Positions 3,282-51,960 are shown, numbered from the stretch's first letter. The stretch is 64,000 nucleotides of DNA from a virus (IMGVR_UViG_3300023311_001083:1-64000); one strand, 5' to 3'. The notes: generated from the letters alone by a model not told the origin. Program-made: numbers and translations.

Positions 3282-3436
3282 GTTTTATTTTATTGTAATT
3301 TAAAAGTTGTTTTGCTAAGTGTTATGTCGTATTATACTCATAAAATTTAAATATGCAAGGATTAATATTGCTTTGTGTAATACCAGTTGCGTATCTGCTA
3401 AATAAATGTATAATACACTATTTAATAGGAAAGCAC

Positions 3437-4966
3437 ATGAATTATTTAGAACTACGCTCCTTAATGGCAAACCCTGAAGAGTTATCAAACTTGTATGCTA
3501 GAACAATATTTTTAGGATTAGAAAAGAAGATACCGATCCGAAGAAGATTATGGCACGTAGATAATAACATCTTGACTATACCAGTTTGTAAAACATGTAA
3601 AATGGAAGAAGTGTCTTGGTCTGAAAAAACTTCCGAATATAGAAGATTTTGTTCATCAAAATGTGCCCACCAAAGTGATGAAGTAAGGGAAAAAACTGAA
3701 GCCACGTGTGTTGAAAAATACGGACATCGTACAAATTTTTTATCTGAAGAAAATAAAGAAAAACAGCGTGCTACTTGTCTTGAGAAATACGGTGTTGATA
3801 ATTTTGCCAAATCTAAATTATTTACTGTGCGAAATGAAAAAACTTGTATGGACCGTTATGGGGTTAAAAATGTAGCATTATTTCCAGAATTTAAGGATAA
3901 GATGGATGCCACTAATCAAGCACGATATGGAAGAAAACGTAAATCACAAGCACATATACCTGAGCATATAATTGCATTAAAAGATGATGAAGCAATAATG
4001 CGTTCATGGTTTTATGATCTAAAAATGCCAGTTTCAGAAATTGCAGAAATTTTAAATGTTAGTGTATCGCAGTTATGTGTACATTTTAGGAATAACTTAA
4101 ATATTGATATTTCTAGACATAATATATCTACTATTGAAAGAAAAGTAGGGGAATACATAACGTCATTATCTATTGAGTTTGAAAGTTCAAATAGAACTAT
4201 TATAAAACCTAAAGAATTGGATATTTTTGTACCGTCATATAATATTGCTATAGAAATTAATGGCATTGCATGGCACGGTGAACTTCGTGGTAAAAATAAT
4301 ACTTACCACTTAGAAAAAATGAATAAATGCAATGCACAACAAATTAGATTGATACAAATTTTAGATCACGAATGGAATAATAAACAAGACATTGTTAAAT
4401 CAAGACTTAGTGGAATATTTGGAAAAAATACAAGAATTTGGGCTAGAAAGTGTATAATAAAACCAATTAGTGCAGCAGAATCTAGAGCTTTTTTTGAAAA
4501 ATGTCATATTCAAGGATATAGTTCACAATCAGTTGCATATGGATTATTTTATGAAAATATACTAGTATCAGCGATGAGTTTTTGTAAAAGTAGATATAAT
4601 AAAAAATATCAATGGGAATTATTAAGATATGCCAATTGTCTGAATACCAATGTAATCGGTGGTGCTGGCAAATTATTTGCACATTTTAAAAAAATAGAAA
4701 ACCCAATCTCGGTTATTAGCTACTGTGATTTAAGATGGAATACTGGAAATTTATATGAAAAAATTGGGTTTAATAAAATAAAGCAGAGTGGCCCCAACTA
4801 CATGTATACAAAAAATGGAAATCTATACAGTAGAATAAAATTTCAGAAACATAAACTACATCAATTGTTAGAAGATTATGATCCCAATTTAACAGAATGG
4901 GATAATATGCGAAACAATAAATATGATAGGATTTGGGATTGCGGAAATCTAGTATTTGTTTATTAA
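3437..4966 (+). mobile_element. Hef-like free-standing homing endonuclease (Zn-finger/repeat N-terminus, PD-(D/E)xK/Vsr-like nuclease, C-terminal conserved domain)
   Basis: ELDIFVPSYNIAIEINGIAWH motif, CxxC..FCSSKC, KYG repeats; opposite strand to neighbours; start at 3437 has AGGA SD and GCTAAATA at 3397-3404. Confidence 0.75.
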
Positions 4967-46865: not shown

Positions 46866-46893
46866 ATTATACACGATTAATAAATTAAGTCAA
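46866..46893 (-). promoter_or_regulatory. sigma70-like promoter
   Basis: TTGACT-16nt-TATAAT. Confidence 0.6.
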
Positions 46894-47293
46894 GTATTTT
46901 TTCATACCATTTATCAAAATTATGATCAATTATTCTAATATCATATTTTTTTGGTGGAGTAAATAAAATATTAGTATCTGGATATCTACCACTACTAATA
47001 GTATCAACCCATATCAATACATCTGGGTTGATTATTTCTCTAAATTCTTCTAATGGTGCAACCATATCAATTATGGTATGTACTGATTCAGAAGAATCTG
47101 CGAGATTTTTCATACGATGTGCTTGTCTAAATCGCCCTTCATATGAAAAATCCCAATCATCTAAATGTTCTCTTACTTTATCAGCATTATACCAATTTAC
47201 AGTAACATTGCTACTCATTAATAATGATGCTAGTTTTTCAGCAAGATTTGTTTTTCCTGAGCCAGGAAGCCCCATTATTAAAATTGTGCTCAT
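46877..47293 (-). CDS. P-loop kinase (APS-kinase-like)
   Basis: IMGLPGSGKT, WYNAD.VR, DWDFS..GR. Confidence 0.7.
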   Translation of the reverse strand: MSTILIMGLPGSGKTNLAEKLASLLMSSNVTVNWYNADKVREHLDDWDFSYEGRFRQAHRMKNLADSSESVHTIIDMVAPLEEFREIINPDVLIWVDTISSGRYPDTNILFTPPKKYDIRIIDHNFDKWYEKILDLIY

Positions 47294-48648: not shown

Positions 48649-48811
48649 ATTTTCCTCCAGGTTATATAGTATATAGTTTTATTATACAGATAGTATAGTT
48701 AAAAAACAAGAACTTATAAGTAAAAATACTATCAACAAATAATAAACAATAAAGATTTATTTTTAAATTTATGTCATTAATTTGTAACAATAGAAAATGA
48801 TAAATATTACT

Positions 48812-49729
48812 ATGAAAATGAATGAATTATTACTTGAAAGAATTTCAGTATCATCTAATACACAACAGTTGCAGACTGAAATATTATCGATTGTTGCTGA
48901 AATTAACAATAGAACATATAAACAGTTTAACTTACCTGAAGAAAGTAAACAGTATGGTTTTAAACTTCTTGTATTACTTGATGCAAAAATTACAAAGTTT
49001 TTAACTGATAAAATAAAAGAAATAGCAGATACTCATGTTAAAATTGAATTTTTAGATATGGATAACGAATCTGGATCTGGTGGTTATGTATTTGAAGAAA
49101 ATAAATTAAAATTACATAAAAAGTTATTGACTAATATAGCAAATTGGGCAGCTCATATAAGAACTCAGGCTGCGATGGGTAAAACATCGAACCAACAAAT
49201 TACAATAAATATGTTAAAAACGGCAATTGCATCATTAGTTAAGATATTTTTACATGAAATAACACATGTAATACAAATAAAATCAGCTGGTAAACCTTAT
49301 GAAAAAAGCAAGATTTATAATAAACAGCAAGTTGATGATTATTTGTCTTCATTAAATTTGAAAACGAGAAAACAACAACAAAATTATAAAGGTGATAAAG
49401 AAGATTTAAATAAGAATAGATTAAATGTTTTCTTAGCTAGAAAAGATTTGAATGATCCTAAAAATGTTGATGTATATTTAGCACAGCCAGAAGAAATAAC
49501 TGCTTATGCACAAGAATTAGTTAGTGATTTTGCTTCTAAATTAGTAAATAAATCAAAAACTCAACAGTTAATATCGATAAACAATTTTACAAATCAATTA
49601 AAAACTAATCAAATACAGCATCCATATTCATTTATGGCAAATAGTGAAGATACAAAATATAAAAATGTATATAGAAGATTTTTAAAGAGTGTTATGCAAG
49701 AATTAGTTGCATTTAAGGAACAACTATAA
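48812..49729 (+). CDS. putative capsid-targeted protein with HExxH metallopeptidase-like motif
   Basis: Start MKMNELLLE at 48812 after GATAAATA (48799-48806); FLHEITHVIQ; Y...PEEI.AYA. Confidence 0.6.
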   Translation: MKMNELLLERISVSSNTQQLQTEILSIVAEINNRTYKQFNLPEESKQYGFKLLVLLDAKITKFLTDKIKEIADTHVKIEFLDMDNESGSGGYVFEENKLKLHKKLLTNIANWAAHIRTQAAMGKTSNQQITINMLKTAIASLVKIFLHEITHVIQIKSAGKPYEKSKIYNKQQVDDYLSSLNLKTRKQQQNYKGDKEDLNKNRLNVFLARKDLNDPKNVDVYLAQPEEITAYAQELVSDFASKLVNKSKTQQLISINNFTNQLKTNQIQHPYSFMANSEDTKYKNVYRRFLKSVMQELVAFKEQL

Positions 49730-50174
49730 TTTTATCAAACCCTTCAGCTTCTGTTGGCATTTCTAAATTAGATTTCATTTGATCTAAAACATGTGTTGGT
49801 ATAGATTTACCAGGACGATTTAATCTTCTTTTATGTTCTTCTTCATCTGGAGTTGTAAACACGACAGCCACTTTATAGTAATTTAGAAAATGCTTTAATT
49901 TATTAATTCTAGTTTTTGAAGTAATATTAGTTTGATCCCATATCACATCATCTCCAGATGCAACTGCATCAGCCACTTCATCATTCATCATTTTTGTAGC
50001 GTGTGGTATAAATTCAGAAAACACTTCATTATATGTTTTTCCAACTCGTTTAGCATACTCTTCAATGTAATGATCACTGCTAATATAACGACAATCATTT
50101 GTCCATTGTTGTGATTTAACCCAAGTTGATTTTCCTGAACCTGGTACTCCGATTAAAAAGTAAACAGTACTCAT
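49713..50174 (-). CDS. P-loop kinase (AAA_33/polynucleotide kinase-like)
   Basis: LIGVPGSGKST, ISSD, IWDQTN. Confidence 0.8.
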   Translation of the reverse strand: MSTVYFLIGVPGSGKSTWVKSQQWTNDCRYISSDHYIEEYAKRVGKTYNEVFSEFIPHATKMMNDEVADAVASGDDVIWDQTNITSKTRINKLKHFLNYYKVAVVFTTPDEEEHKRRLNRPGKSIPTHVLDQMKSNLEMPTEAEGFDKIIVVP

Positions 50175-50687: not shown

Positions 50688-51002
50688 TTATTGTTTTCCT
50701 ATAAGTTAAAGTTTAAAAAATACATCAATAAAGAACTCTTAGAGTTTGGTTTATTTCCATGGCTGCCCAGAGTTACAGCTCTGCTCTATAGTCCAGCCTT
50801 AACATGGTACATATTTGTTCATCAATTTTTAAATATATGCTGTAATCATATATCTAAGATTATTAACATGGTGCATGGTCTATGACCAAGAATTATAATA
50901 AACTTCCGATCTATTATAATTATGTTAACACCACAAATATGTGTGAGTTCTTTAGTGATAGATTTATTTATCATTCAATAAAATTATGATTAAGAATTAT
51001 AT

Positions 51003-51611
51003 GAGGGGGCTTACGCCGCCCTTCCATTTCATGTTCATTTCAATTTCGCTTCGCTCAATTTCATAAACATTCATGGATATTATTTTCAATTATAATGGTT
51101 AATAATTATGGATCCCATTCACTAGATTGTAAGCCATTATTACCCAGTTGCCCAGGCAAAAAAATAGTATATTCACTGAGTCGGCTGGTTAGGCATACCA
51201 TTAGCGTTAACGCATTACAGAGGCGGTCATCCGGTACCTCGAGCGCAGTTATTATTATGACGGTGGCTTGTAAACATACGCTAACATGCTTACAAACGTG
51301 TAGGTTCTCCCTACTCTTTTAGCCTCGGTTTTATTATTGTAATAAGTAAATCAAATCGGTTTGGTGCGGGCATATCCGATCAACGTCCTGTAAAGGATAG
51401 TGATTTACATCTCTGCTGCTACGTCAGAAATTCACTTCATTGTGACCCTAGAATGGTCCAACTTTAAGTCCACCAATTACAGTCGCCGGTGGGAGCTTTA
51501 TATTAGCAGTTATGTGCCTGAGTTAAGTTATTCATAATGTGCCTGAGTTTGTTATTGAGATAATACTTTCGTATTAACAGAGTGCCTGAGTTTGTTATTG
51601 TAATAGTGTGT
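51003..51611 (-). ncRNA. unassigned large structured non-coding region
   Basis: No credible ORF, GC-richer than flanks, many hairpins, strong promoter at 51612-51640, terminal hairpin near 51003-51023. Confidence 0.5.
51514..51600. repeat. three direct repeats GTGCCTGAGTT(TGTTATTG)
   Basis: Copies at 51514, 51539, 51582; last two identical over 19 nt. Confidence 0.85.
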
Positions 51612-51640
51612 ATTGTATATTAAAATTACTATATTGTCAA
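51612..51640 (-). promoter_or_regulatory. sigma70-like promoter facing the non-coding region
   Basis: TTGACA-17nt-TACAAT. Confidence 0.7.
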
Positions 51641-51927: not shown

Positions 51928-51960
51928 ATTATACTATCTATTGACAACCTTGTCAATAGA
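51928..51960 (-). promoter_or_regulatory. sigma70-like cspA promoter with palindrome over -35
   Basis: TTGACA-17nt-TATAAT; TCTATTGACA-ACCT-TGTCAATAGA at 51937-51960. Confidence 0.65.

Follow-up and report, generated by a model that had tools for sequence, protein, structure and literature searches.

What is encoded by about 600 nt of gene-free, promoter-driven DNA in an uncultured phage, and what might its product do? The locus lies on the minus strand of a 64-kb stretch of viral DNA (hereafter, the window), which is part of a 75.9-kb contig from IMG/VR. CheckV rates this contig as 22% complete; thus, only part of a very large phage genome is represented. The original prediction took the locus for a large, highly structured non-coding RNA with no recognizable family, or for an RNA-primed origin of replication. 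As described below, the locus is almost certainly an RNA gene and a member of a known family, Polynucleobacter-1 (Rfam accession RF01718).

The locus and its transcription unit

The consensus promoter proposed for this locus is of the sigma-70 type and matches the consensus at 11 of 12 positions (TTGACA-17-TACAAT), with transcription predicted to start near 51604-51607 on the minus strand. It is located directly downstream of the terminator hairpin of a gene for a cold-shock-domain protein (csp). The csp gene has a promoter of its own at 51928-51956 with a perfect 12/12 sigma-70 consensus (TTGACA-17-TATAAT); a phage-encoded, CspA-like RNA chaperone gene directly upstream of the large structured RNA was seen in this genome only. 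The approximately 600 nt that follow the promoter of the RNA contain no open reading frame (ORF) with a Pfam match and end in a hairpin, already noted in the original prediction, that proved to be the conserved 3' hairpin of the RNA family. With its promoter, gene-free interior, and terminal hairpin, the span from 51003 to 51640 thus appears to bracket a single transcription unit almost exactly. Because the terminal hairpin is not followed by a U-tract, and there is no canonical terminator at this site, we can only infer that the RNA has its 3' end there.

The locus had also been described as richer in GC than coding DNA, and it is: the approximately 600-nt unit has a GC content of 38.4% versus a window mean of 31.0 +/- 2.8% (99.5th percentile), and the RNA core, at 43.8%, is the GC-richest 299-nt stretch of the window. 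The thermodynamic stability is unremarkable (z = -1.36 for 611 nt), and such z-scores are uninformative for this AU-rich RNA; the evidence for RNA structure is comparative, not thermodynamic. Coordinates of all features are given in Table 1. Beyond the RNA, a second ORF-poor stretch (50690-51000, minus) has no Rfam match. A 42-aa ORF (50974-50846, minus) starts there inside GATAAATAAAT, a motif resembling a T4 late promoter, and an imperfect hairpin around 50757-50800 (minus) is not unusually stable (z = -0.44).

Table 1. Features of the RNA locus and its immediate surroundings, in the order of transcription
Feature	Position	Strand	Description
Cold-shock-domain gene (csp)	51897-51694	minus	68 aa; PF00313, 2.9e-26
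csp terminator hairpin	about 51681-51655	minus	-13.7 kcal/mol, z = -6.97
Sigma-70-type promoter	51640-51612	minus	TTGACA 51640-51635, 17-nt spacer, TACAAT 51617-51612
5' leader	51592-51514	minus	Three exact AACUCAGGCAC repeats: 51592-51582, 51549-51539, 51524-51514
5' domain (Rfam motif)	51497-51344	minus	RF01718, 84.4 bits; P1, P2, P3, P4
P1	51492-51486 / 51476-51470	minus	Covariation
P4	51408-51401 / 51353-51346	minus	Covariation
Uncatalogued central domain	51323-51199	minus	R1 model, 108.9 bits
H4, GUAGG/CCUAC	51314-51310 / 51304-51300	minus	Covariation
H5	51296-51286 / 51277-51268	minus	Covariation
PK1, UAGCGU/ACGCUA	51283-51278 with 51207-51202	minus	H5 loop with downstream strand
PK2, GUCAU/AUGAC	51261-51257 with 51230-51226	minus	Upstream strand with H6 loop
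S6, GCGC/GCGU	51246-51243 / 51213-51210	minus	Compensatory changes
H6, GAGGU/GCCUC	51240-51236 / 51224-51220	minus	Covariation
Box-1 hairpin	51201-51164	minus	Predicted stem AUGGUAU/AUACUAU; fold, equivalent pairings in relatives
Box 1, AGUGAAU	51177-51171	minus	3' side of hairpin loop, after constant ACUC
H7 hairpin, UUGCCUGG-GCAA-CUGGGUAA	51159-51140	minus	GNRA loop; between boxes
Box 2, AGUGAAU	51123-51117	minus	Identical to box 1, after constant AUCU
AU-rich insert	51116-51061	minus	Window-specific, ~55 nt, after box 2
Stem AAUU/AAUU with GAGCGAAGCGA loop	51060-51042, loop 51056-51046	minus	GAGCG..GCGA motif of relatives
3'-terminal hairpin, GGGC-GGC GUAA GCC-CCC	51021-51005	minus	One bulged C
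GATAAATAAAT	50972-50962	minus	Beyond the terminal hairpin

Polynucleobacter-1 RNA and its relatives

The claim that the locus belongs to no recognizable family does not hold. The comparison with Rfam suggested in the original prediction gave a match to the covariance model of RF01718 with a score of 84.4 bits (gathering score 37; E = 1.8e-16 over the whole window). The match is full-length: it covers model positions 1-141 of 141, is not truncated, and includes the 3' half. No other Rfam family approached this match, even at E values up to 10. The absence of group I intron, RNase P, and tmRNA signatures, as originally stated, was confirmed: none of these has a covariance-model match in Rfam at E up to 10, ARAGORN found neither tRNA nor tmRNA, and no split host gene surrounds the RNA locus. 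The proposal of a large structured phage RNA with its own promoter is supported, although the RNA is not novel in the sense of lacking a family.

Polynucleobacter-1 was described as an orphan motif (Weinberg et al. 2010, Genome Biol 11:R31; PMC2864571). According to the supplement of that paper, the motif came from Polynucleobacter and environmental samples and was found in no sequenced purified phage (PMC2864571). It was located mostly downstream of genes of the GOS11034 family, with possible homology to gene 218 of cyanophage P-SSM2, and was tentatively classed as cis-regulatory; the authors also remarked that its 3' half is not always present (PMC2864571).

Relatives of the locus were collected by scanning IMG/VR with a pattern of the invariant core (CACTATCC..GGACG..GATCG), which yielded at least 120 loci, many of them on contigs of 130-345 kb. 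The RF01718 model gave a single match per genome in two that are 99% complete (343 and 345 kb), and likewise a single match on each of three further large contigs. When the window was compared with the listed loci by blastn, similarity ran from about 51405 down to about 51200; it overshoots the Rfam model by approximately 145 nt on the 3' side, and identity reaches up to 87% at 51299-51200. Across more than 100 phage contigs of IMG/VR, the conserved RNA proved to be about 3.5 times the length of the Rfam model, its body reaching from about 51524 or 51497 to 51005 (~490-520 nt). The search across deposited phage genomes that had been recommended was also carried out: when the window locus and a typical member were searched for with blastn in 50,697 such genomes, no match appeared, and therefore the 2010 remark on purified phages still holds at that sensitivity. 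The core pattern also matched contigs of bacterial genomes (at least 120 matches); those listed lack the conserved downstream motifs and are chance matches in GC-rich genomes, and they do not imply that the RNA is absent from bacteria.

The window RNA resembles other members of the family in having P1 to P4 and the invariant CACUAUCC..GGACG segment. On the other hand, the Rfam model represents only the 5' 30% of the conserved RNA, and the central domain with its two pseudoknots, the twin boxes described below, the H7 hairpin, and the 3' hairpins are uncatalogued in Rfam. The window copy is further set apart by a promoter of its own, a 5' box in three copies, a P4b loop of greater length, and the lack of a GIY-YIG neighbor. 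Among other large RNAs, GOLLD, ROOL, HEARO, OLE, and raiA are comparable: they too are orphans of several hundred nucleotides with ornate, pseudoknotted folds and strong covariation, carried by phages or mobile elements. However, the window RNA matches none of them in Rfam at E up to 10, and none of them is known to carry two covarying identical boxes.

The genes next to the RNA follow a strong pattern to which the window is an exception. In 111 of the 120 loci listed, a 142-aa ORF on the same strand ends approximately 10 nt before the RNA. We identified it as a SegE-type GIY-YIG protein that consists of the catalytic domain only (PF19835, SegE_GIY-YIG; 1.2e-32), and it is this gene that corresponds to the GOS11034 or P-SSM2 218-like gene upstream of most relatives. 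Among the loci listed, this ORF is usually flanked by a gp46-like gene and by genes of T4-like phages that resemble those of the baseplate hub. At the window locus, the typical upstream gene is replaced by the cold-shock gene, and no SegE_GIY-YIG homolog is present at this locus or anywhere on the 76-kb contig (~22% of the genome). The RNA stands alone here; therefore, it does not need a GIY-YIG neighbor. The Pfam-annotated neighbors of the window RNA are the cold-shock protein, an alanine-zipper protein, and an AAA_33 kinase, with no nuclease or recombinase among them, and none of the flanking proteins of the window recurs beside the RNA at the other loci listed.

Two small P-loop kinases are encoded near the RNA on the minus strand, at 49716-50174 (AAA_33, 1.2e-19) and 46880-47293 (APS-kinase/KTI12-like, 5.6e-09), and between them is a 310-aa plus-strand protein (48797-49726) that has no Pfam or PHROG family. 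Elsewhere in the window, a 537-aa homing endonuclease with an HNH region (3353-4963, plus; phrog_3339, 1.5e-119; phrog_559, 1.7e-88) interrupts an otherwise minus-strand gene block.

Covariation, fold, and twin boxes

The covariation analysis that had been suggested was performed on two alignments. The first, A1, was made with MAFFT without regard to structure and contains 73 representatives that share less than 93% identity; nine helices (46 pairs) were read from it by columns. Standard pairs are formed in 97.0% of its cells, versus 33-42% when the partner strand was slid by 1-3 columns; both-sided changes occur in 27 of 46 pairs, and none of 500 shuffles reached any of these measures. The row of the window in this alignment is shifted in P1, P4, and H6, and column counts and the covariance-model alignment were used instead. 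The second alignment contains 59 sequences and belongs to R1, a covariance model of the central domain that was built without pseudoknots and that detects this domain in the window (Table 1). Here, 95.5% of cells are paired versus 27-51% in the slid controls, and both-sided changes are found in 32 of 37 pairs. Both pseudoknots, which the R1 model leaves out, are strongly supported: PK1 is 98% paired with all six pairs covarying, and PK2 is 99% paired, with UA changed to CG in 19 sequences and GC changed to AU in 17. Alignment A1 gives the same result for the central domain. In the 5' domain, both-sided changes affect four of five pairs in P1 and four of six in P4 (98-99% paired in A1).

Most of the stems that had been proposed from the single sequence can be assigned to these helices. 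CCACCGG/UUGGUGG is P1, GUAAAUCA/UGAUUUAC is P4, GUAGG/CCUAC is H4, and UUGUAAGCAU/AUGUUUACAA is H5, and each of them covaries in relatives. The support is weaker for GACC/GGUC, which is P2 of the Rfam model and is paired in 84-90% of the MAFFT rows, and for UCCU/AGGA and AUCGG/CCGAU, whose positions are paired in the Rfam model but show hardly any variation across the family. GAGG(U)/(G)CCUC is the covarying helix H6; however, the CGG-AUGA-CCG hairpin proposed inside it overlaps PK2 (GUCAU/AUGAC) and was dismissed. The GCGU/ACGC hairpin was mistaken: GCGU has its partner in the upstream GCGC (S6), and ACGCUA forms PK1 with UAGCGU in the H5 loop, with compensatory changes in both cases.

The leader and the 5' domain show features of a subclass. 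The three AACUCAGGCAC repeats are found nowhere else in the window. The third repeat aligns with a single YAGGCA box, located approximately 25 nt before P1, in about 56% of the relatives listed, and 2-3 copies of the leader box are present in members that share the long P4b loop with the window (L118, L015, and L016). A scan of viral contigs for the leader repeat (CTCAGGCAC twice) returned 119 unrelated loci, none of which has the RNA. By eye, the 5' AGGCA box could plausibly pair with UGCC in the P4b loop, but the box is missing in many members and nothing covaries. P4 encloses the invariant CACUAUCC-UUUACA-GGACG segment and an extended P4b hairpin. A further AGUGAAU word, the sequence of the boxes described below, occurs at the P2/P3 junction (51430-51436, minus); relatives have no equivalent, and it may be a coincidence.

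The central domain is variable in two respects. In 13 of 72 representatives, among them L004, L037, L043, L120, L011, and L035, 40-70 nt are inserted between H6 and the 3' strand of S6 (A1 columns 405-467), often as short repeats containing TATAG; the RNA seems to tolerate expansion at this site. One locus (L085:11167-11582) is a natural deletion variant in which H5 is joined directly to the second of the two modules described below: it has lost PK2, S6, H6, the 3' strand of PK1, box 1, and H7, and keeps only box 2.

Downstream of PK1, the RNA contains two similar modules, each ending in a constant tetranucleotide (ACUC in the first, AUCU in the second) that is followed by a 7-nt box. In the window, both boxes read AGUGAAU, a word unique to it among the loci sampled. 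At least 10 forms were seen among the loci listed (AGAUAAU, GGAUGAA, GGAUAAU, GGAUGAU, AGAUGAG, GAAUAAU, GCAUAAU, AGAUGAU, AGAUGAA, and AGUGAAU), and within a locus the two boxes are the same: among the matches listed, they are identical at 7/7 positions in 93 of 108 loci, and of the rest, two have one mismatch each, and about a dozen are loci at which the calling of the motif failed. The mutual information between box columns is correspondingly high (0.89/0.99, 0.36/0.37, 1.0/1.0, and 1.11/1.20 bits), and no third alignment column has comparable mutual information with them. The distance from one box to the other differs by tens of nucleotides among loci. Divergence per site ranges from 0.024 to 0.30 in the boxes versus 0.079 to 0.355 in the rest of the RNA, which it tracks at a slightly lower level. 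The boxes evolve in concert and no faster than the rest of the RNA; therefore, an address code shaped by an arms race is not indicated.

The first box is probably displayed in a hairpin loop, with a stem formed by the linker of the first module and the segment after the box, to judge from the predicted fold and equivalent pairings in relatives. H7, between the boxes, is a helix of the whole family (89% paired in A1, with both-sided changes in four pairs); in the window, it includes three G-U pairs that are possible only on the minus-strand RNA, so that H7 forms only on this strand. In relatives, box 2 is followed by a small NGCUUCGCN hairpin and often by an ATAAATAA motif. In 76 of the 103 relatives listed, a stem with a GAGCG-N3-GCGAA loop is found at the same place as in the window, and in 75 of these 76 it is followed by a stable terminal hairpin.

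Searches for a partner of the boxes gave no candidate. None was found inside the RNA by mutual information across alignment columns, no reverse complement of the boxes occurs at a fixed position within +/-3 kb of the loci, and neither the boxes of a given phage nor their complements are enriched in 804 kb of flanking phage DNA. In the window, AGTGAAT is not in excess (20 copies vs. 14.6 +/- 4 expected). Known motifs were also considered: the boxes as complements of anticodon loops, as a k-turn, as box C/D, as a hammerhead core, as take-off and landing sites of the gene 60 type, or as complements of CACUAUCC. Each of these fails on some variants, including that of the window.

Possible functions of the RNA

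The conserved RNA of approximately 490 nt, with its two pseudoknots, is predicted to be part of a primary transcript of about 600 nt. The reading that we consider probable is that the locus, present in a single copy and transcribed on its own, encodes the full-length Polynucleobacter-1 RNA of uncultured large phages and that this RNA is a trans-acting scaffold for the twin boxes. Its consensus sigma-70 promoter would be used early, by the host RNA polymerase. The product would act in trans, its rigid, knotted core displaying two single-stranded AGUGAAU boxes, and these might be read by Watson-Crick pairing with a short sequence that is present twice or on two molecules. We put this pairing mechanism forward only tentatively. 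On the one hand, if each box pairs with a sequence that is encountered twice, the joint change of the boxes would be accounted for, as would the independent change of the other parts of the RNA, and base pairing is favored because nearly every position of the box can change while the copies stay identical. On the other hand, pairing is disfavored because no partner was found in the RNA, within +/-3 kb, in the 804 kb of flanks, or in the window.

The simplest alternatives concern the DNA or a protein product. That the locus encodes a small conserved protein is scarcely credible. One frame or another does remain free of stops for a median of 68 codons, and 56 of the loci listed have a recurrent antisense ORF; however, the three codon positions are equally variable (entropies of 1.36, 1.42, and 1.49 bits), the ORFs are in different frames, those of 75, 42, and 64 aa have no Pfam match, and substitutions follow base-pair partners. 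The original description of the locus as non-coding thus holds. The alternative offered with it, an RNA-primed origin, is not supported. At T4 origins of the oriF/oriG type, a promoter transcript persists as an R-loop at a DNA-unwinding element, and the polarity of replication switches there. The window has a promoter followed by repeats (three 11-mers and the twin 7-mers, which could be iterons) in a non-coding stretch. However, the compensatory changes and strand-specific G-U pairs reflect selection on an RNA fold, the spacing of the boxes varies by tens of nucleotides, and the cumulative GC skew, a measure suggested in the original prediction, falls steadily through the locus without a turning point; where it deviates slightly, at 48-56 kb, it tracks the plus-strand genes of that region. 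We therefore regard an origin as highly improbable. A cis-regulatory role, as the 3' untranslated region of the upstream gene or the leader of the downstream gene, is very unlikely as well, even though the 2010 paper marked the motif as possibly cis-regulatory and the upstream gene family is recurrent (PMC2864571). In the window, a strong terminator and a consensus promoter separate the RNA from csp; the upstream gene differs (cold-shock versus GIY-YIG), and downstream genes differ in identity and strand among loci. Moreover, known leaders are far smaller than an RNA of approximately 490 nt that has two pseudoknots.

The remaining alternatives keep the RNA as an active molecule and give the boxes another reader. 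One is that the RNA is the guide or partner of the adjoining minimal GIY-YIG nuclease, with the twin boxes specifying two identical target sites. Site-specific recombination requires identical crossover cores, which the twin 7-mers resemble, and the SegE-type gene immediately precedes the RNA at nearly all of the loci listed. However, the contig (~22% of the genome) has the self-promoted RNA and no homolog of the nuclease, the neighbors of the RNA in the window include no nuclease or recombinase, and no complement of the boxes is found near the loci (+/-3 kb and flanks); we consider such a partnership improbable. Instead, the GIY-YIG gene of most relatives would be a homing endonuclease settled beside a conserved gene rather than a partner of the RNA. 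In T4, the free-standing homing endonuclease gene segB sits in the tRNA cluster, beside conserved RNA genes. Similarly, a Seg-type GIY-YIG gene, known here from genes alone, adjoins a conserved non-coding RNA gene in T4-like genomes, and nuclease-free alleles, such as that of the window, also exist. Another possibility, unlikely but deserving more weight, is that the RNA is a decoy or a protein-binding scaffold, the boxes being sites for a dimeric or repeated host or phage protein or mimics of host sequences. It would agree with the failure to find a complementary nucleic-acid partner in the RNA, within +/-3 kb, in the 804 kb of flanks, and in the window, with boxes that are not fast-evolving, and with carriage by phages, a typical setting for defense and counter-defense cargo. 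However, nearly all seven positions vary while the copies stay identical (AGAUAAU, GGAUGAA, GCAUAAU, and AGUGAAU), a joint change that is easier via base pairing than by repeated retuning of protein specificity, and no candidate protein travels with the RNA in the window.

Returning to the twin-box scaffold, its most far-reaching version is that the boxes are programmable 7-nt guides of a stand-alone phage RNA, protein-independent or assisted by a protein in trans, that recognizes two identical nucleic-acid sites. We see this as a long shot. The likeness is to the IS110 bridge RNA and the omega RNAs of TnpB and IscB, which are also structured RNAs on mobile DNA with short, variable, pairing-like segments. 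The window RNA differs from these in that it has no linked effector gene in the window or on the contig (~22% of the genome), no target complementarity was found, and its two segments are identical rather than matched to two different sites.

What is new at this locus is a stand-alone, self-promoted copy of the RNA, a multiplied 5' box in one subclass, and boxes that evolve no faster than the core. For the family, this means that Polynucleobacter-1, an orphan entry of 141 nt since 2010, is the head of an approximately 490-nt RNA with two proven pseudoknots, which is found once per genome in 340-kb phages and yet in none of the deposited phage genomes searched. The window is a natural control: it has all parts of the RNA and a strong promoter of its own without the GIY-YIG gene, and it separates the function of the RNA from that of the nuclease. 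It also offers a clean unit, from promoter to terminal hairpin, that is open to direct expression and probing. Two short boxes held identical across at least 10 sequence states are a rare signature that points to a reader. If the boxes were indeed programmable guides, the RNA might, for example, connect two molecules or two copies of one site and would represent a new class of programmable RNA of mobile elements.
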